A program made the translations under genes and the position numbers. From Octopus vulgaris (Eukaryota): a stretch of 64,000 nt of DNA. The stretch is taken from contig OX597817.1 of assembly GCA_951406725.2 (NCBI GenBank), positions 38,130,001 through 38,194,000 of the forward strand, read 5' to 3'. Positions 8,481-62,675 of this stretch are shown here, in pieces (within the stretch, counting starts at the first letter, position 1; the number at the start of each line of letters is the position of its first letter). A model generated the notes under the pieces. The model was not told the origin of the DNA, searched no databases, and saw only the letters and a program-made list of their open reading frames with translations.

Positions 8481-8686
8481 CTCTTTTACTCTTTTACTTG
8501 TTTCAGTCATTTGACTGTGGCCATGCTGTAGCACCACCTTTAGTCGAGCAAATCGACCCCAGGACTTATTCTTTGTAAGCCTAGTACTTATTCTATCGGT
8601 ATCTTTTGCCGAACCACTAAGTTACGGGGACGTAAACACACCAGCATCGGTTGTCAAGCGATGTTGGGGGGACAAACACAGACACA

Positions 8687-8723
<37 letters not shown>

Positions 8724-8902
8724 ACGTATACATATATACGACGGGCTTCTTTCAGTTTCCACCAACCAAATCCACTCACAAGGCTTTGATCGGCCCGAGG
8801 CTATAGTAGAAGACACTTGCCCAAGGTGCCACGCAGTGGGGCTGAACCCGGAACCATGTGGTTCGTAAGCAAGCTACTTACCACACAGCCACTCCTACGC
8901 CT
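8481..8902 (-). mobile_element. Full-length tRNA-derived SINE, family A (internal CA tract, tail ...TGACTGAAACAAGTAAAAGAG)
   Basis: Minus strand begins AGGCGTAGGAGTGGCTGTGTGGTAAG (A box) ... GGTTCAGCCCC (B-box-like). A near-identical copy is at 49449-49836. Confidence 0.9.
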
Positions 8903-11793: not shown

Positions 11794-12278
11794 TGTTTTT
11801 TTTATTACCCACAAGGGGCTAAACATAGAGGGGACAAACAAGGACAGACAAACGGATTAAGTCGTCTGAATCATTCCCAGTGCTTAACTGGTATTTATCC
11901 TATTGAACCTGAAAGGATGAAAGGCAAAGTCGACCTCGGCGTAATTTGAACTCAGAACGTGACGGCAGACGAAATACGGCTACGCATTTCGCCCGGCGTG
12001 CTAACGTTTCTGCCAGCTCGCCGCCCTTTAAAGACAGACGAAATACCTATTTCTTTACTAGCCACAAGGGGCTAAACACAGAGGGGACAAACAAGGACAG
12101 ACAAACGGATTAAGTCGATCACATCGACCCCAGTGCGTAACTGGTACTTATTTAATCGACCCCGAAAGGATGAAAAGCAAAGTCGACCTCGGCGGAATTT
12201 GAACTCAGAACGTAGCGGCAGACGAAATACGGCTACGCATTTCGCCCGGCGTGCTCACGGTTCTGCCAGCTCACCGCC
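11794..12278 (-). mobile_element. Head-to-tail dimer of SINE family B (tRNA-like head, Nin/Deu-like central domain)
   Basis: Two copies (~11794-12026 and ~12044-12278) share GCCGAGGTCGACTTTGCCTTTCATCCTTTC (minus strand). One 17-bp TSD, TTGACAAGATTATTATT, flanks the pair at 11777-11793 and 12279-12295. Confidence 0.9.
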
Positions 12279-12374
12279 TTGACAAGATTATTATTGTTTT
12301 CGTTGTCGTACTTGTTGCTGTTGTTGGTTCATCGTTGTTGTCACCGCCACCGCCGCTGTCGATGTTGTCACTAA

Positions 12375-26419: not shown

Positions 26420-27430
26420 TATAATGATGATTGCTTCATCTTGACAGATGATAGCCGTCCCATTAACACACACACCACACCCCATCACACAGCACAATCA
26501 CTCCGCTGATGAGCCCTCAGATGTCTTTTAAGACCAGCTGCTGACTGACAGGGCTTACAACACTAGTGACAGATATTATTCAAGTTTCTTCTATATCTTT
26601 GCCTTTTGGAATCTGATTGTGAAGGAACATTTTTGTGAACTAGCGTATGTCTTTTAAGTTCAGATATTGTCTTTCAAATTTTGTGACATATGACACAAGT
26701 AGTAAGAGGCGGTTGGTGTCCAAGATTATTACCATTTCAATTTTCATGTGACTTCATATGATTTACGTATCCTGCTTTTGACAACAGAATACGATCACAT
26801 ATAATACATTTCCAATGTTTACTGTTGATTACAGCTCCAGTCGTTCCTTTGCGACAGGCCCTTTTAAGCTCAGACAGCTGTATCATCTTTTCCTACCAGG
26901 ATTTGTAACCAGTCCTAACAGCACCTCTCCACATTTTCCCAATCGCTTTTGTTCATATCTAGTTTCTTCAGGTTTTCCTACACACAGTCTTTATACCTTT
27001 TCCTCGGATTATGTTGTGGTCGCTTACCAAACTTAAGCTCACCATAAAAAGGACGCTTTAATAATCACTCATCTGTCATTCTAATAATATGTCCAATTGA
27101 TCTCACTTGAGCCAAGAATACATGTTGTTCAATTGAGTTACAACGTGCCATGCGCAAAGCTTCTGTATCTAGTACGAAACATTCCCACTTTACTCTTAAG
27201 ATACGTCTGAGGCACTTTTGATGAAATCTCTCCAGCATTTTTATATGATGATTGTAAGTGGTCCACGTCTCACTTGAATAAAGAAGTGCAGTCAATACAC
27301 ACGCTTCATAGACACTGGTTTTTGTCTGCAGGGAAATACCTCTATCCGCCCATACTCTCTTTTCGAGCTTTCCAAATGCAACACTTCCCTTCTCTGTGCG
27401 ATAGTATATCTCTATATCAAGACCACCACA
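26420..27430 (-). mobile_element. 5'-truncated RTE-clade LINE: RT C-terminus, three C2H2 fingers, 3' UTR
   Basis: AFGKLEKRVW..TKTSVYEACVLTALLYSSETW..LERFHQKCLRRIL is typical RTE/BovB. It is followed by CIICDRILLSKAGYVNHMKSH, CVICHKI*KTISELKRHTLVH and CH*CCKPCQSAAGLKRHLRAH. Confidence 0.88.
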
Positions 27431-27661
27431 TGTGATTTATGCCAAGAGATAGTGGTCTTGATGCAGATATGTATGTTGCGTTTTGAATTTCGTCTGATGA
27501 GACGAAGATAAATCACATGTAATATGTTGTAATATTGCACAAACATTTATATTTATATTCATATTTATATTTATATTCATGATATATAGGACCATATATT
27601 GTTGAACCAACCGTAATGAAAAAATAAATGTAATACCATAACCTCCGTTCCTGGACTTACC

Positions 27662-27892
27662 AGCGGCGAGCTGGCAGAATCGTTAGCATGCCGGGCGAAA
27701 TGCTTAGCAGTATTTCGTCTGTCATTACGTTCTGAGTTCAAATTCCGCCGAAGTCGACTTTGCCTTTCATCCTTTCGGAGTCGATTAAATAAATACCAGT
27801 TACGCACTGGGGTCGATGTAATCGACTTAATCCGTTTGTCTGTTCTTGTTTGTCCCCGCTATGTTTAGCTCCCTGTGGGCAATAAAGAAATA
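27662..27892 (+). mobile_element. Full-length SINE family B
   Basis: gcggcgagctggcagaatcgttagc...gagttcaaattccgccgaagtcgactttgcctttcatcctttcgg...gtgggcaataaagaaata; nearly identical to the reverse complement of 33052-33283. Confidence 0.92.
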
Positions 27893-30065: not shown

Positions 30066-30311
30066 AGAAGCGCAGTAAAAGTGAGGATTGTCTCATTAAT
30101 TTGCATCTTTAAGTTCAGTTCCTGCCATGGGTATAGTCTGGAGAGGAATGTAAACAGCAAAACACTTTGCACCTATATCAATTAAGGCGCGAACCTTTTC
30201 AGCCCGATTAAATGAAATTTTGCTTTGTACTAATTCCGTCAATAAAGTTGATAGGGGAGTGTTACTTATATGAAAACATGTAATTTAGTTCTGGCTACAT
30301 GATTGTCTTTG

Positions 30312-30706
30312 ATCTTTTACTTGTTTCAGTCATTGGACTGCGACCATGCCCTCTTTGGGCACCACCTTGACGGGTTTAGTCGAACAAATTGGCCCTTTTA
30401 CTTATTTTTTAGGTCTCATACTTATTCTATCGACTCCCTTTCCAGAACTGTTAAATTACATTGACATAAATAAACTAACACAAGTTTCCAAGCACTGGTG
30501 GGTGGGGGGACAAACTCAGATACAAACACTGATACACATATTATGAAGGGCTACCACGCAGTTTCTGTCTACCAGATTCATTCACAAAGCATTGGTCGAC
30601 CCCGGGTTATAGTATAAAATACTTGCTTAATATGTTGCACAGTAAAACTGAACTCGAAACATGTGTTCGCCAAGTGAGCTTCTTAACCTCACAGCCATGT
30701 CTGTGT
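30312..30706 (-). mobile_element. Diverged SINE family A copy
   Basis: tcttttacttgtttcagtcattggactgcgaccatgc...cacaaagcattggtcgaccccgggttatagta...cacagccatgtctgtg. Confidence 0.8.
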
Positions 30707-32697: not shown

Positions 32698-33051
32698 AAA
32701 AGAGAGACAGACAGACACAGACAGATAGAGAGTGGTCACCCGTAAGTGAGTGTGACTCGGTAACAATGTACCTAACTTTCGCATATGGCTTTAGATGTTT
32801 ATGTAGTTGCAAGCAGACATAGACACTCTCTTGGCTTTCCCACCCTTTGATCTAGTGGCACATACTGAGTGTAACAAGTGGAAGGAGAGAGAAAGAACGA
32901 GAGAGAGGGAGTTGTACCCGTGCATGGTGGCTAGTATTCATTTCAATTGAGTAGACTGGAGCAAGAAATGAACCTGTGACATTACGATCGTGAACCGAAC
33001 ATCCTAATCACTACACCAAGCGTTCTTTTTTTCTTCGGGCCTAATGTACCT

Positions 33052-33283
33052 ATTTGTTTACTACCCACAAGGGGCTAAACACAGAGAGGACAAACAAGGA
33101 CAGACAAACGGATTAAGTCGATTATATCGACCCCAGTGCGTAACTGGTACTTATTTAATCGACCCCGAAAGGATGAAAGGCAAAGTCGACCTCGGCGGAA
33201 TTTGAACTCAGAACGTAGCGCCAGACGAAATACCGCTGAGCATTTCGCCTGGCGTGCTAACAATTCTGCCAGCTCGCCGCCTT
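33052..33283 (-). mobile_element. Young full-length SINE family B with long TSD
   Basis: Direct repeat CTTCGGGCCTAATGTACCT at 33033-33051 and 33281-33299, partly overlapping the SINE ends. Confidence 0.95.
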
Positions 33284-34604: not shown

Positions 34605-34817
34605 TGGTATCAAATTTTGGCACAAGGCCAGCAAGATCGGGACGGGGGTAAGTCGACTACATCGATCACCAGTGCTTAACTGGTACTTATTTTATCGATT
34701 CCGAAAGGATGAAAGGCAAAGTCGACCTTGGTAGAATTTGAACTCAGAACGTAAAGATAACGAAATGCCGCAAAGCATTTCGCCTGGCGTAGTAACGATT
34801 CTGCAGCTCGCCGCCTT
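34605..34817 (-). mobile_element. SINE family B variant with the alternative tail (...GGCCTTGTGCCAAAATTTGA)
   Basis: Same head and central domain as 33052-33283, but the 3' end matches the 12375 and 44950 copies. Confidence 0.85.
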
Positions 34818-46898: not shown

Positions 46899-47264
46899 GG
46901 AAGCACTCCGTCGGTTACGACGACGAGGGTTCCGGTTGATCCGAATCAACGGAACAGCCTGCTCGTGAAATTAACGTGTAAGTGGCTGAGCACTCCACAG
47001 ACACGTGTACCCTTAACGTAGTTCTCGGGGATATTCAGCGTGACACGGCCCTTTGAAATACAGGTACAACAGAAACAGGAAGTAAGAGTGAGAGAAAGTT
47101 GTGGTGAAAGAGTACAGCAGGGATCACCACCATCCCCTGCCGGAGCCTCGTGGAGCTTTAGGTGTTTTCGCTCAATAAACACTCACAACGCCCGGTCTGG
47201 GAATCGAAACCGCGATCCTATGACCGCGAGTCCGCTGCCCTAACCACTGGGCCATTGCGCCTCC
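46899..47264 (-). mobile_element. Full-length tRNA-derived SINE, family C, with 11-bp TSD
   Basis: Minus-strand head GGAGGCGCAATGGCCCAGTGGTTAGG...GGTTTCGATTCCC (A and B boxes). TSD GGATTCCAGGT at 46888-46898 and 47265-47275. The 3' half is shared with 58670-58990. Confidence 0.93.
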
Positions 47265-49334: not shown

Positions 49335-49835
49335 TTATAAATATACAACAGGCTTCTTGCATTTTCAGTCTATCCAAATCCATTCACAAGGCTCGAGGTT
49401 GTCTCGAGGTAACAGTAGAAGACACTTGCCCCAGGGTGTCGTGCATGCCAGTCATTTGACTGTGACCATGCTGGAGCACCGCCCTTAGTCAAGCAAATCG
49501 ACTCCAGGACTTATTCTTTGTAAGCCTAGTACTTATTCTATCGGTCTCGTTTGCCGAACCGCTAAGTTACGGAGACATAAACACACCAGCATCGGTTGTC
49601 AAGCGATGTGGCGGGGTGGGGGTGACAAACACAGACACACAAACATATACACGCACACACATACATATAAACATATATACGACGGGCTTCTTTCAGTTTC
49701 CGTCTACCAAATCCACTCACAAGACTTTGGTCGGCCCGCGGCTATAGTAGAAGACACTTGCCCAAGGTGCCACGCAGTGGGACTGAACCCGGAACCATGT
49801 GGCTGGTAAGCAAGGTACTTTACCACACAGCCACT

Positions 49836-49885
<50 letters not shown>

Positions 49886-56022: not shown

Positions 56023-56429
56023 TCTTTTACTTGTTTCAGTCGCTGGACCATAGCCATGCTGGTGCACAAGCTTTGAGGGGTTCAGTCGAACAAATCAAGT
56101 CTGATACTTATTCTATCTGTGTTTTATGCCAGGTTTTATGCTAAGTTTTATGCTAAGTTACCGGGCTGTAAACCATCCAATGCCAGTTGTCAAATGGTGG
56201 AGGGAACAAACACAATACAAACACAAAGATACACACACATACACACACACACACACACACCACACAAACACGCACGCGCGCGCGCGACAGGCTTCCCAGT
56301 TTCCGTCAGCCAACTTCACTCACAAAGTTTTCGTCATATAGTAGAAGAAACTTGTCCAAGGTGCCACGAAGTCAGACTGAAACCTAAACTACATGGTTGT
56401 AAAGTGAGCTTAGCTATTGAGCCATACCT
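56023..56429 (-). mobile_element. Diverged SINE family A copy
   Basis: tcttttacttgtttcagtc...cttgtccaaggtgccacgaagtcagactgaaacc. Confidence 0.8.
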
Positions 56430-56759: not shown

Positions 56760-57150
56760 AGTCTGTGTAGTTGAGAAGTTCGCTTTTCAATCATTTGTTT
56801 GGTTCATTTCCACTGCTCAGCACTCTAGATAAATTTCTATATCCTAGGACCGATCAATGCCTCGTTAGTGAATCTGGTAGGCAGAAACTGTGTGGAAGCC
56901 CGTCGTGCATATATGATTGTGTGTGTATGTATATATGCATGCATGCATATGTGTGTGCCTTTGTGCTTGCGTTTGACAATAGTTTGGTTTGTTTACGTCC
57001 CCGTAACTTATTGGTTCAACAAAAGAGACCAATAGAATAAGTACCAGACTTTTAAAAAAAATTAAGTACTGGGGTCGACTTTTTCCTACTGAACTCTTCA
57101 AAGCGGTGCCCCAGCATAGTCGCACTTTAATGTTTAAAACAAGTAAAGAT
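56760..57150 (+). mobile_element. Diverged SINE family A copy
   Basis: ...gaaactgtgtggaagcccgtcgt...gtttacgtccccgtaactta...gcggtgccccagcat...aaacaagtaaagataag. Confidence 0.8.
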
Positions 57151-57301
57151 AAGTATTAGAGTATAAATTCCTTTCAGTGTTTATTGAATACTGTTTGATA
57201 GATACAGTTCTATATTTAAGAGATGAGGAATTATGTACATTATATATATTATTTACATTATTTACATTCGACGGATATTTGTCCTCATCTTGTTTGTTGT
57301 T

Positions 57302-57347
57302 AACACAACGTTTCAGCTGATATACCCTCCTGTCTTCTTCAGGTGTC
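57302..57347 (-). ncRNA. Second minimal type-I hammerhead ribozyme copy (stem II partly mismatched)
   Basis: Minus strand GACAC-CTGAAGA-AGACAG-GAGGGTATAT-CAGCT-GAAACGTT-GTGTT. Confidence 0.6.
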
Positions 57348-58174
57348 TTGGGGAAAGTTCGAACTTGTGTTCTCATTCCTAAGGTATTTTTCGATGTATA
57401 TTATTATTATTGTTATTGTTCAGGTCACTGCTTGGAATCGAACAATGAATCTAAGACAATGAGCTTTCTTATGAAGTCTAAACTATCTTAAACGAACCGA
57501 TGAGTATTCTTTTACTGGTGGCCATGCTTGTATTTCAACCTGGACACATCTCCAAAATTTCTTTGATGTTTCACCATTAATTTGAGATGATATGTTGTGA
57601 TAAGTACGAAATGTTGCCTTGAAAGACAGGTCATTCAGTAAGAGTTTTCCTCACTAAAACTGGATGGTAGTGAATGAAATATCGGTAAATTACCGAAGCG
57701 AAACTCTATGGAAAGATATATAAATAAGGTAGTTAATGAGACTTAAACATCCTGATATACGTGTCTGAAATTGTATTAATAATTCACTGCAAGGAACTGA
57801 AATAACACAGACAGAATATAGATAACAATTTTGTGTCAGGATAATTCTGTACAGGGAAAAACCAAAATTGTATCGCTTCGGAAATATCCCCTACGTTTCA
57901 TAAATCCCCGTAATTATAAAATGTAATACAGCTAATAAATTCATTACATATCAGAAACGAATAAAAGGAAAATTTCCAAAAGTATTTTCGGCTGATATAC
58001 CCTCCAGCCTTCTCCAGGTGCCTTGGGGAAATGTCGAACTTGTGTTCTCATTCCTTAACCACTACGCCATAATCCCGAGTTCGATTCCAAGCAGTGACCT
58101 GAACAATAACAATAATAATAATATATATCGAAAAATACCTTAGGAATGAGAACACAGGTTCGAACTTACCCCAA

Positions 58175-58220
58175 GACACCTGAAGATGGCTGGAGGGTAT
58201 ATCAGCCGAAACGTAGTGTT
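58175..58220 (+). ncRNA. Minimal type-I hammerhead ribozyme (Penelope-type)
   Basis: Stem I GACAC/GTGTT; core CTGAAGA (58180-58186) plus one extra nt; stem II GGCTG/CAGCC; GAAA (58208-58211); palindromic ACGT in place of helix III; predicted cleavage triplet GUA, cut after 58215. Confidence 0.75.
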
Positions 58221-58669
58221 AACAACAAATAAGACGAAGACAAATATCCGTCGAATGTAAATAATGTAAATAATGTACTGTTTGATAGAATCTAATAGTT
58301 TGTTAATATTGGTTAATATTGAACTTTAAAAAAGTTCCGGTGGCCTACAAAGAAATTATGATAGATATTTCTAATTTTGTTGAATCGGTTTCTATATCAT
58401 ATTATGGGAGCAGGTATGTTAATAAATTTGACGACAAAGCAAGGAGCACCACTTATAAACTATCTCCCTGCATGATGCATTTTGATTATATATGATGTTA
58501 GATTCAATGAGTGTGTTCTCAACTGCCAGAAGTAAGGCGAGGTACTGTACCTTAATTTTGTGCTCAATAACAGTTTCTATTTGTTGTGAGATTCTGGTTA
58601 ATTATAAAGCTTTGTTCATCTACGCGTTGCCATGCTATAAAGGTCTTTCTGTTAACCTATGCACAAAAC

Positions 58670-58990
58670 TGGCATTCCGTCGGTTACGACGACGAGTGCT
58701 CCTGTTGATGTATCAATGGAACAGCCTGCTCGTGAAATTAATGCGCAAGTGGCTGAACACTCCACAGACACGTGTATCCTTAACGTAGTTCTCAGGGAAA
58801 TTCAGCGTGATACAGAGTGTGACAAGGCTGGCCCTTTGAATTACAGGTACTACTCATTTTTACCAGCTGAGTGGACTGGAGCAATGTGAAATAGTGTCTT
58901 GCTCAAAGGCACAATGCGCCGCTGAGAATCAAACTCACGACCTTACAATCGTGAGTCGAATACCCTAACCACTAAGCCACGAGCCTTCGC
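58670..58990 (-). mobile_element. tRNA-derived SINE sharing its 3' half with family C but with a different head and middle
   Basis: ccgtcggttacgacgacgag...gaacagcctgctcgtgaaatt...ggccctttgaa is shared with 46899-47070. Minus-strand head GAAGGCTCGTGGCTTAGTGGTTAGGG...GAGTTTGATTCTC. Confidence 0.88.
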
Positions 58991-59148
58991 AATCTCTCCA
59001 TAGCACAATCAAATTCCTCTGATTTTCACTGTTTTCTTCAATAATCATTTTCTTAATCTAATGTATACAATTCCGTGCCTTCTTCCTACCCCGAGGTTAC
59101 TCAGGTGTTGCAATATCATTATTACAAAAAGATGGTTGAAGCACCCAA

Positions 59149-59216
59149 CTATATATTTTATAGACTCTATATATTTTATAGACTCTATATATTTTATAGA
59201 CTCTATATATTTTATA
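59149..59216. repeat. 18-bp tandem repeat, about 3.8 copies (CTATATATTTTATAGACT)
   Basis: Direct reading; explains the KYIESI repeat in ORF 59045-59275. Confidence 0.95.
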
Positions 59217-59549
59217 CACGATGTTCTAGAAAGGTATTCGACAGCAATTTTTAACCAAATGGTTTCAGAAGACATACATTCAGTTGATCAAATCCTTCAT
59301 ACCAATATCATATTATAAATTCTAGACTGTTAGATGATTTCTTCAGAACTTTTAATAACAAACACAAGTACTGTGTCATTTCTTATTCTGATTTCGTTTA
59401 ACATGTTTCCTCACTGTAGTTCTTCCATCTATTCAGACTGTTTTACAAGCTTGTTATTTTTACCCACATAAGTTTCCAATTGTCTGAAAGCGTATTTTCT
59501 ACTCAGTTGTCTCTTACTATTATGTGCCACGTATTAAGTAGTTACGATA

Positions 59550-60170
59550 GATCTTGTAGTTATTGTATTGTATTTCATTTCGTATAAGTTCGTGTTTCAG
59601 TTTCTATAGTTTAATATCCAATCTATCAATGTTACGACCACAAAATACTTTTGGAAATTTTCCTTTTATTCGTTTCTGATATGTAATGAATTTATTAGCT
59701 GTATTACATTTTATAATTACGGGGATTTATGAAACGTAGGGGATATTTCCGAAGAGATACAATTTTGGTTTTTCCCTGTACAGAATTATCCAGACACAAA
59801 ATTGTTATCTATATTCTGTCTGTGTTATTTCAGTTCCTTGCTGTGAATTATTAATACAATTTCAGACACGTATATCAGGATGTTTAAGTCTCATTAACTA
59901 CCTTATTTATATATCTTTCCATAGAGTTTCGCTTCGGTAATTTACCGATATTTCATTCACTACCATCCAGTTTTAGCGAGGAAAACTCTTACTGAATGAC
60001 CTGTCTTTCAAGGCAACATTTCGTACTTATCACAACATACCATCTCAAATTAATGGTGAAACATCAAAGAAATTTTGGAGATGTGTCCAGGCTGAAATAC
60101 AAGCATGGCCACTAGTAAAAGAATGCTCATCGGTTCATTTAAGATAGTTTAAACTTCATAAGAAAGCTCA
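59550..60170 (-). pseudogene. Putative Polinton/Maverick minor capsid (penton) gene relic
   Basis: Starts MSFL. Frameshifted DKYE/VALKDRSFSKSF resembles the penton G.WEVAL.EI.YP.SW motif. Later PVIIKCN...PKVFCGRNIDRLDIKL. Motif match from memory only. Confidence 0.4.
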
Positions 60171-60179
60171 TTGTCTTAG

Positions 60180-61175
60180 ATTCATGTCGAAACCTCTTGC
60201 ATAGGAAAAGCATACAATCGTAACCTGTTTCTAGCATTAATGATACTACAACTTACTTCAATCCTGCTGTTGGCATTAACGTTGTTATTATACCCTGTAT
60301 CACTATCTGGTGTATTATGATGGACAGGATTATGAGTCTATGTTCAATTGGAGGTAATATGGAGTAATTTAATACATTTTGCTTCTTGAGATGCTTTGGA
60401 TAAAAGTCAAGTTCCATAGATGTTTCAGTTTCGGTATAAAACAATGAGGTGTAGACTCATACTTCGTACAATCCTTATAAAATTCTTTACTGTTAAAGAT
60501 GTAACTCGACTTTATATTTTGATCGATATGACAAAAAATGTTTTCCTGGATAAGGTAGAGATTTATATTCAATACCTCAAATTCATCCTGTGAATATTCT
60601 TTACTTGATTGCCATTTTCATAATGAGAACTTGAAATGATGTGCTTTTAATAACTAAAATTTCCTGGCAACGTACAAATTGCAATCACCTATGGCCTATG
60701 TATCCAGATTTTAGTATGTTAAATCAAACTTACCAGGATCAAACTGCATGTTCATCAATTTACCTGTTTATTGCATTTCTATGGAGTTTCGAAATCTTAA
60801 TAAAGAAAACTTTTTGAATTGATGACTCGGGATTTATTTCACTTACCTTTTAAGGGACTGGAGTATATGGATTGCTTTTATTGTCAAACAATGATCTATT
60901 TTGTAAAGTTCGGAAGTTGTTGCCCTGTAAAATGTTTTAGGAATGTTGTTGTTTTATGTGATTTGCTTTTGTTTTTTGTTTTTGTTTTACTTCCATTAAT
61001 TTCTCCAGTCGCCCTGGTTCCTATTCTATACCATTTTTTCGTTATCATTTTTCACGAGTCCCTGCGTCCAAGAATTTTTTTTAATTTTTTATTTTGGCCT
61101 CCATCTCTGAGACATATTTAGGTTACATGCGCGCACGCATATAGATACACTGATGCGTGCGCGCGTGCAGCCTAA

Positions 61176-62049: not shown

Positions 62050-62675
62050 AAATGTTGTAGCATTGCAGAAGACATCTGGTGGTGATAAGTCGTACGACTG
62101 TACATGAGATAACACTGAGGTTTAAGGACGGCATAAGGACTACCATAAAGTCACTTGGAATGGATCCAGAGGACATAGAAACCCTTGCTGGATGGCGAAC
62201 AAAAGTGTGGAGTGGAGCAAAAGCGTTTGAAGAGGCCAGGATAACGCATGCAAGACTCAAGAGAGATTTAAGGAAGAATGTTACGATCGAGAAGGTGAAT
62301 CACAACGACATTTTTGTGTGCAAAGTTTGTGACAGATTATTCTTTCTTTTGCTGGGCTCAAATCTCATTTGCTAACCAATGGAAAACGAACCTCCACCAG
62401 CTATTCTGCCTATATGCTTATACACACCTTTCAATGCAATGTATGCCAGAAGGTCTGCAAATCTAACAGAGGCCTCAAAAGATATTTTAAGATCCACAAA
62501 GATCAGAACTTATTTGCAGCTCTTAGTGGACCAAATCGAATATGCAATCTATGTGGATGTCTTTTCAAAACATTGTCTGGTTTGAAAAGCCACATCAAGT
62601 TCCATGACAATTCTAAGATGTAGGTACAGCAGACGGTCAAACTCTACATAATGAGTAGACAACCATCACCATATA
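62050..62675 (+). mobile_element. RTE-clade LINE 3' fragment with three C2H2 fingers and 3' UTR
   Basis: LRFKDGIRTTIKSLGMDPEDIETLAGWRTKVWSGAKAFEEAR (RTE C-terminus), then CKVCDR..SH, CNVCQKVCKSNRGLKRYFKIH and CNLCGCLFKTLSGLKSHIKFH. It ends ...caaccatcaccat followed by a microsatellite. Confidence 0.85.

Follow-up and report, generated by a model that had tools for sequence, protein, structure and literature searches.

Architecture of the locus

The window, a stretch of 64,000 nucleotides of Octopus vulgaris DNA, carries a composite insertion between two 14-bp direct repeats. Inside the repeats lie, in order, a repeat unit on the minus strand, an inverted 544-bp copy of downstream DNA, a second unit fragment (minus), an A-box piece (minus) and a unit on the plus strand. 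The features are as follows.

57189..57202, plus: left copy of the 14-bp target-site duplication; its final base also fits the end of the element family (loose ends at 57202)
57203..57443, minus: unit 1, a 5'-truncated copy of the element that terminates at the B-box
57203..57244, minus: 42-nt 'tail' of unit 1, missing from unit 3; family ends cluster at 57202/57203 and 57248
57302..57347, minus: minimal hammerhead of unit 1; private changes weaken stem II in the predicted fold
57445..57988, minus: inverted copy of 59642-60185, 534/544 identical; two copies in run X1
57986..58055, minus: unit 2, a 70-nt fragment that runs upstream from the hammerhead GAAA; its core is CUGGAGA
58053..58069, minus: presumably a tRNA-type A-box piece, by motif match to the consensus
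58070..58277, plus: unit 3, 5'-truncated and without the tail, head-to-head with units 1 and 2
58079..58088, plus: motif of unit 3 that we take to be B-box-like, by match to the consensus
58175..58220, plus: minimal type I hammerhead of unit 3 with a 5-bp helix I and a 7-bp helix II, the monomer without helix III; predicted cut after 58215
58276..58289, plus: right copy of the target-site duplication; its opening 3 bases are common to the element, and the alignment of contig 11 of run X12 stops exactly at 58276
59642..60185, plus: source segment at its ancestral position, 1352 nt from the insertion; the single-depth contig 10 of X12 crosses from 58964 through 59641 into it

Repeat and alignment comparison of the window bears out the 14-bp repeats, the order of the parts and all of the coordinates given by the first-pass annotation. 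The 14-mer occurs exactly twice in the 64 kb, at 57189 and 58276. Since the right repeat opens with three bases that equally belong to the element, the stagger of the target site was really 10-14 nt. The two inverted arms differ at 10 of 544 nt, with no third copy of the segment within the window; the proposed duplication of DNA from about 1.4 kb downstream is real. Separately, a Pfam test took in 148 of the 334 filtered open reading frames, and its lone match, a sub-threshold zinc finger, falls within a LINE-like remnant.

The carrier element

The repeated unit is a non-coding and very abundant element that combines a B-box, a minimal hammerhead and the Penelope signature of a tail at one end only. 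The tail measures 42-45 nt, and the family has two preferred 3' ends, +59 and +104/105 nt past the predicted cut; among the matches listed, the tail end was seen in four of four runs and the tail-less end in two of four. These two ends can be likened to the two RT starts of PAc (PMC11167929). The 3' end at 57203 is fixed and non-repetitive, not the poly(A) or simple repeat of a LINE-type end. An inverted 5'-truncated copy adjoins the 5' end, as insertions of the EN+ Penelope-like (PLE) type demand, and the head-to-head inverted partial copies and the target duplication agree with the earlier assignment of the locus to Penelope-type insertions. A minimal type I hammerhead is predicted in the terminal repeat, and its architecture in unit 3 matches that in PMC4209133. 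The GAAA is unpaired in the predicted monomer fold, and co-folding of the dimer did not return an intermolecular active hammerhead. Rfam gave nothing at the gathering score (eight matches, all at chance level).

We found no open reading frame with the RT and GIY-YIG domains of an autonomous PLE, and no head-to-tail array with a hammerhead in each unit, as in non-LTR retrozymes, at this locus. The tRNA gene search called none. The A-box is present only as a 17-nt piece fused to unit 2, which may be the 5' end of the element, attached following an internal deletion; its copying from the neighbouring tRNA-like head at 58960-58979 (3/20 differences) is unlikely. Searches for unit copies elsewhere gave no matches in metagenome or viral contigs and one in bacterial genomes, a chance 20-mer. 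In the literature searched, there was no description of a short repeat combining Pol III-type boxes with Penelope-type ends, and the carrier may deserve a study of its own.

Copy number and ancestry of the captured segment

Organism A (run X1) has two copies of the segment, as indicated by a contig depth of 104.4 versus 51.6 and 55.3 on the flanks and by a bubble with two 121-nt arms (0 and 5 differences) that reproduces the five differences seen in the window between 57478 and 57538. In both X1 and X4, the forks in the contigs lie precisely at 57988/59642. The outgroup organism E (run X12) has one copy, in the ancestral position and at single depth. We conclude from the two copies in A and the one in E that 59642-60185 is the source and that a single branch holds both the insertion and the capture; the direction from source to insert proposed earlier is supported. 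The sequence joining unit 3 to the repeat is present in X1, X4 and X6 and absent from X12. In organism E the contig breaks off where the direct repeat begins, at 58276, and 222 nt of it have no place among the matches listed. The empty-site comparison suggested by the first-pass annotation is answered in part: the outgroup appears to be without the insertion here, and the contig stop suggests an empty site.

In run X6, contig 25 joins derived alleles of the copy (57788, 57875) with derived alleles of the source (57505, 57838). Altogether, the ten differences polarise to both copies, 3-4 to one and 6-7 to the other. Two observations count against our best reading: the X6 contig has a depth of 1.02-1.12 times the flank, where 1.16-1.33 is expected for two copies, and site 57852 requires homoplasy. 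The coverage of X4 is low, with a gap across about 59035-59304. The proposal that organism C is without the captured copy was dropped on the allele pattern, which leaves the state of C somewhat uncertain, and joints between 57296-57307 and 57986 were set aside as cross-mapping of the two direct unit pieces.

Junctions and divergence of the unit pieces

Both junctions of the captured segment show the microhomology noted earlier. At the right junction, TTT is common to both sides and lies 4 nt before the predicted H17 (58215-equivalent), so that the coordinates hold for its earlier placement at the hammerhead GAAA, 4 nt off the predicted cleavage site. The left junction has a TCGA(A)C-like overlap that sits just outside the copied segment. 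Since the source sequence of the outgroup aligns from 57442, a template may account for the extra A at 57444, in which case the left overlap would be exactly 2 nt. The random chance of at least 3 nt of microhomology is about 0.07 (P 0.068), and such short microhomologies do not reveal which polymerase acted. The three switches are grouped within 630 nt, and all three left-hand pieces have one polarity, the complement of the element RNA or of the top strand of the source.

The three unit pieces differ mutually by 6-10%, versus 1.8% for the captured copy, and are thus 3-5 times more diverged. The excess is found both for 12/199 unit differences against 10/544 in the copy (Fisher p 0.006) and for 7/70 against 10/544 (Fisher p 0.001; P 0.0003 in a further test). 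The latter comparison rules out a simple fork-slippage (FoSTeS/MMBIR) duplication of one pre-existing unit, and the divergence points to separate RNA templates for the unit pieces. A single template combined with an insertion dating back to the divergence from organism E is also compatible with the unit divergence (P 0.04-0.11), with 9.8-11.3 unit changes expected at this maximum age versus 16 seen. An unusual microsatellite variant is common to units 1 and 3 (one difference in 63 nt), which hints at a common source, and their ends at the B-box lie no more than 9 nt apart, the pattern expected from a shared RT stop.

Origin of the composite insertion

We lean towards a single insertion event with serial switches from RNA to local DNA and back to RNA as the somewhat better than even explanation. 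A borrowed Penelope-like endonuclease would make a staggered cut of 10-14 nt. Synthesis at the right end would begin at the tail-less start of one RNA and give unit 3; at the left end it would run along another RNA from the tail start to the B-box and give unit 1. The left strand would then pair over a few bases with the top strand near 60186, copy 544 nt, prime anew through TTT/AAA where the GAAA of a third RNA is unpaired, giving unit 2, and finally skip to the A-box and be joined to unit 3. Resection of the right end would not expose the top-strand template; this scheme therefore requires strand invasion or a replication fork or sister chromatid. The first-pass annotation had a reverse transcriptase jumping between element RNA and neighbouring DNA within one insertion. 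Serial template switching indeed remains the most economical account. The DNA segment may have been copied by reverse transcriptase or by a host repair polymerase. The shared branch favours one event, and the unit divergence fits an older insertion too. The suggested route to segmental inversion or duplication holds for a small inverted duplication and not for a segmental inversion. A pre-formed composite element that landed by chance beside its own source was rejected, since the source is not flanked by units.

It is conceivable, though clearly less probable, that the locus arose in two steps, in which an older Penelope-type insertion (partial tandem units 1 and 2 with inverted unit 3) later suffered a break at its inverted repeat, which a host polymerase closed by copying in an inverted segment from a local template, with trimming of the unit ends. 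The higher divergence of the units, the tolerable fit of a same-template model at maximum age and the partial tandem plus inverted layout usual for PLEs speak for this sequence of events, as does the frequency of templated, inverted insertions via microhomology at breaks (PMC11724301). It needs two events on one internal branch, however; the changes expected even at the maximum age fall short of those seen, and the near-coincident ends of units 1 and 3 at the B-box look like a shared RT stop. Much less probable is a second, abortive priming, in which a bottom-strand nick at 59641/59642 (ending TTTT) primed the unit 2 cDNA; the 544-nt flap, once released together with this cDNA, would have been captured in the nearby break. 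Here the T-run pairing with GAAA would come from the source end itself, and flap-derived inserts with a TPRT signature are described for L1 (PMC11702581). Yet unit 2 starts at no usual family end among the matches listed, the source is intact, and the left overlap just beyond the copied segment fits priming on the source, not flap ligation.

We regard as less probable still a template consisting of nascent plus-strand RNA from the locus, with all switches from RNA to RNA. The polarity of the pieces fits a plus-strand transcript, the top DNA strand need not be exposed, and mobilisation of intron-containing host RNA in trans is known for PLEs, but no host exon was found: the sub-threshold zinc finger was the one Pfam match among the 148 frames tested. 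An assembly artefact, such as a haplotype or inverted mis-join, is very hard to credit. None of the contigs covers the insert from end to end, and those that cross the junction of unit 3 and the repeat hold 18-26 unit bases, below the 31-letter bridging rule; against a mis-join stand the double depth, the five-difference bubble, the boundary-exact forks in independent runs and the polarisation of differences to both copies.

The restart of synthesis on the 3' end of a ribozyme-cleaved RNA, raised as a possibility by the first-pass annotation, is compatible with the other readings and unlikely in itself. The junction lies close to the predicted cut, at one of the nine AAA sites in the unit. It is nevertheless 4 nt short of the cleaved end; the unpaired GAAA would permit annealing without cleavage, and the core of unit 2 is itself mutated, although cleavage in trans is still possible. 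Minimal hammerheads are poor at cleavage (PMC4209133), and PAc insertion did not need it, with no reads ending at the site (PMC11167929). Loose ends at the ribozyme-junction position were absent among the matches listed (24 of 3,995). With a microhomology of just 3 nt, the proposal is weak.

How Penelope-like elements build tandem and inverted structures is still an open question (PMC8557442, PMC11167929). The locus offers a mechanistic fossil, a dated insertion with seemingly three RNAs and one local DNA template. It suggests that both cut ends were extended on separate RNAs and that the intermediate stayed open long enough to copy DNA more than 1 kb away. One example, lying in non-coding DNA and showing no hint of function, carries modest weight, which grows only if such captures recur across the family. 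A bolder and, in our estimate, doubtful proposal is that Penelope machinery moves a short retroposon with a tRNA head, and that the RT of this machinery routinely jumps from RNA to chromosomal DNA kilobases off and then to another, possibly ribozyme-cut, RNA. A family of tens of thousands of copies would then act as a constant source of local inverted duplications in the lineage.

Comparison with known systems

The locus shares with EN+ Penelope-like insertions (PMC8557442, PMC3846280, PMC11167929) a head-to-head inverted 5'-truncated copy, a tail at one end, a short target duplication and a minimal hammerhead; Adineta pLTRs likewise enclose host DNA within the TSD. In contrast to these, the present element has tRNA-type boxes and no ORF, and the host DNA was copied in inverted orientation from a site 1.35 kb beside the target, whereas theirs is a transcript moved from another locus. 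Animal non-LTR retrozymes (PMC7229834; 10.64898/2026.07.22.740005) are also non-coding, with a type I hammerhead and proposed mobilisation by PLE machinery, but they are defined as tandem arrays, whereas our units are dispersed, head-to-head and equipped with A/B-box motifs. The schistosome SINE-like elements Sm-alpha and Sj-alpha, compared by description (PMC2770079), are similarly tRNA-related, high-copy short repeats with a hammerhead; the hammerhead here is of the minimal PLE type, and the unit ends with the PLE tail signature.

Break-associated insertions (MMBIR, FoSTeS, fold-back; PMC11724301) also use an inverted local template and short microhomology. The yeast fold-backs are mostly 5-34 bp, and the pieces flanking our copy are not duplicates of the same age. 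For human L1, templated insertions and complex twin-priming products (10.1101/2024.08.27.596794; PMC11702581; PMC13526784) likewise show copies of genomic DNA inside a TSD-flanked retrotransposon insertion, the use of two RNAs, at either end of one site, and microhomology at switches. Such templated insertions make up 22 of 3,598 L1 insertions; their templates typically measure less than 250 bp and lie no more than 15 bp from the site, compared with 544 bp and 1352 nt here. In addition, our copy is sandwiched between two element-derived pieces, and the insertion is germline, Penelope-type and without poly(A). The locus is thus a larger and more distant variant of the known templated insertions.

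Structure of the insertion

The first-pass annotation described one insertion between 14-bp direct repeats that holds unit (-), an inverted copy of DNA lying downstream, a unit fragment (-), an A-box fragment (-) and unit (+), and the sequence bears out this order. Two copies of the 14-mer, at 57189 and 58276, are present in the window and enclose 1073 nt; at the local base composition, 11-14 specified matches would arise by chance with a probability of roughly 1e-6 to 1e-8. The pieces are:

57203-57443, minus: unit 1
57445-57988, minus relative to source: inverted copy of 59642-60185 (10 differences in 544 nt)
57986-58055, minus: unit 2
58053-58069, minus: A-box-like piece of 17 nt (motif)
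58070-58277, plus: unit 3

Units 1 and 3 are arranged head to head, with a tail in unit 1 and none in unit 3. Neither the unit nor the 544-bp segment recurs elsewhere in the 64-kb window, which is animal DNA rich in microsatellites and SINEs and resembles an octopod genome.

The carrier element

The unit belongs to a very abundant family, since summed contig depth over it (not a copy number) exceeds the flank by four to five orders of magnitude in all four sequencing runs. An ORF search of the unit found none, and matching to the usual box consensus identified a B-box plus a detached A-box piece. Unit 3 is predicted to fold, as a monomer without helix III, into a 5-bp helix I, CUGANGA, a bulged base, a 7-bp helix II and GAAAC-GUH; this hammerhead was not scored in the Rfam search. 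The predicted fold corresponds to the minimal type described for Penelope-like elements (PLEs), which is predicted to require a dimer and is weakly active in vitro (PMC4209133).

Among the matches listed, ends of the unit family cluster at 57202/57203 (four of four runs) and 57248 (two of four), respectively 104-105 and 59 nt past the predicted cut, giving one end with a tail and one without. Frangieh et al. traced such a signature to two reverse transcriptase (RT) start sites (PMC11167929), and the arrangement of units 1 and 3 is the usual PLE layout of head-to-head copies with a tail on one (PMC8557442; PMC3846280). Based on the hammerhead, the PLE-type ends and layout, the lack of an ORF, and the B-box and A-box piece, we treat the unit as a non-autonomous, probably tRNA-headed element mobilised by PLE proteins. 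Hammerhead-carrying tRNA-related SINEs are known in schistosomes (PMC2770079), and retrozymes have been proposed as PLE derivatives (bioRxiv 10.64898/2026.07.22.740005; PMC7229834). No description of this element, or of a tRNA SINE with PLE ends, was found in the mainly open-access literature searched.

Units 1 (57443) and 3 (58070-58079) stop within 9 nt of each other at the B-box start, which may mark a point in the tRNA-like head where RT stops throughout the family. Unit 3 has a private ATG with a short frame at the helix II base (58186-58215), 30 nt before the predicted cut, similar to the 26 nt in the layout of the PLE PAc. The bottom strand at 57188-57190, adjoining the left end of the target-site duplication (TSD), reads ATT, the preferred PAc cut motif, which is common in AT-rich DNA.

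Independent contigs and timing

Contigs from four of 24 listed runs were aligned to 56965-59641; none spans the whole insert. In X1 (organism A), the contig across 57591-57988 has a depth of 104.4, versus 51.6 and 55.3 in the flank contigs, and 57448-57568 forms a bubble whose arms differ from the window copy at 0 and 5 sites, the latter exactly the five copy/source differences in that stretch. The flank contigs of X1 and X4 end 30 nt inside the source, so the graph forks at 57988/59642. The right repeat runs on into unit 3 for 21, 18 and 26 nt in X1, X4 and X6, overlaps below the 31-letter bridging rule.

The outgroup X12 (organism E) differs from the window at 44 of 913 flank nt. Its single-depth contig from 58964 through 59641 into the 544-nt segment identifies 59642-60185 as the ancestral site. 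The alignment of a second X12 contig starts at 58732 and stops precisely at 58276, and its 222 further letters are not unit 3 among the matches listed; we read it as a putative empty site.

Polarised with the outgroup X12, the 10 differences divide into 3-4 that arose in the copy and 6-7 that arose in the source, a split resembling that under neutral drift after duplication. In X6 (organism C), a single contig that forks at 57963 combines derived copy alleles (57788, 57875) with derived source alleles (57505, 57838). This is most simply explained by the collapse of two copies into one contig. Two observations count against that reading: depth relative to flank is 1.02-1.12 rather than the expected 1.16-1.33, and site 57852 requires repeat mutation. 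Divergence is 4.8% (CI 3.5-6.4) for the split from E, 1.6% for the A/C split and 1.8% (CI 0.9-3.4) for copy versus source. Under the two-copy reading of X6 and with the X12 outgroup, insertion and capture would most likely both be later than the split from E and earlier than the A/C split.

Mechanism of capture

The 70 nt common to units 1-3 carry 3-4 private changes in each. Units 1 and 3 differ at 12 of 199 positions and copy and source at 10 of 544 (Fisher p 0.006 and 0.001 for unit versus copy divergence); fork-slippage duplication of one unit at capture was rejected (P 0.0003). Two readings remain: either a single event drew on different RNAs, or an insertion that was already old was patched afterwards. 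The latter is disfavoured but alive, because a single template, even at the greatest age allowed, would give 9.8-11.3 changes, against 16 seen (P 0.04-0.11). A near-identical 63-nt head segment in units 1 and 3 (one difference; Fisher p 0.11 versus the rest) could mean a common source. In one event, the units would have been copied from different RNAs, and the left-hand strand would have been synthesised left to right as a single strand, switching templates three times. Consistent with this, the left-hand pieces all have the polarity of one such strand, the three switches are clustered in 630 nt, the ends of units 1 and 3 are at most 9 nt apart, and insertion and capture map to one branch. The copying enzyme may have been the RT, as proposed in the first-pass annotation, or a host repair polymerase.

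The template of the 544-nt copy was the source's top strand. Because that strand would be lost on resection of the right break end, copying would have required a plus-strand transcript, a sister chromatid or duplex invasion. For the transcript, no host exon support was found (one of 148 frames matched Pfam, below the cut-off).

We regard the suggested restart on a ribozyme-cleaved end at the right junction as unlikely. The junction, 4 nt short of the predicted cut, shares TTT; an overlap of at least 3 nt is expected in 6.8% of random joins. GAAA is one of nine AAA sites in the unit and is unpaired in the predicted monomer fold, so annealing would be possible without cleavage. The unit 2 core reads CUGGAGA. 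For PAc, cleavage was dispensable, and no RNA reads ended at the cut site (PMC11167929). Among the 24 loose ends listed of 3,995, none is at the junction position, a share too small to weigh either way. Of the four private changes in unit 2, two (58014 and 58021) read as A-to-G on the element strand, one of them in the hammerhead core; A-to-I editing of the RNA template could account for these, which are too few to judge.

Relation to known events

The capture is genuine and can be dated; it is a variant of a known event type, represented by a single instance, and has no evident function. Host DNA has been described between PLE terminal repeats inside a TSD (PMC3846280), and inverted inserts copied from a template are known from breaks (PMC11724301). 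For L1, template switching, inserts derived from flaps and the use of two RNAs at a single site are on record (PMC11702581; PMC13526784). Among 3,598 L1 insertions, 22 had templated genomic inserts, typically <250 bp and within 15 bp (10.1101/2024.08.27.596794), whereas the 544-bp segment is larger, farther away and flanked by two element-derived pieces. A search of the literature turned up no PLE-type insertion with an inverted, locally templated capture.

Neighbouring repeats

Directly left of the insertion lies an old SINE-like copy (56837-57147) related to 8490-8894, 30306-30697, 49449-49836 and 56023-56402 (65-88%). Other very abundant repeats occupy 58672-58990; among them are a piece that matches 46903-47070 (82%) and, at about 58925-58979 (-), a tRNA-like head bearing motifs that resemble the A- and B-box. 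An 18-bp tandem repeat of about four copies (59149-59219) coincides with broken or shortened X6 and X12 contigs, which suggests recent expansion. Decayed LINE-like coding remnants, which we take to be RTE-like, occur at 27065-27436 (-) and 62061-62620 (+), the latter with a sub-threshold C2H2 zinc-finger Pfam match. A dispersed repeat of about 230 nt is found at 11797-12280, as a head-to-tail pair (87-94% alike), and at 27663-27892, 33047-33283 and 34649-34817.
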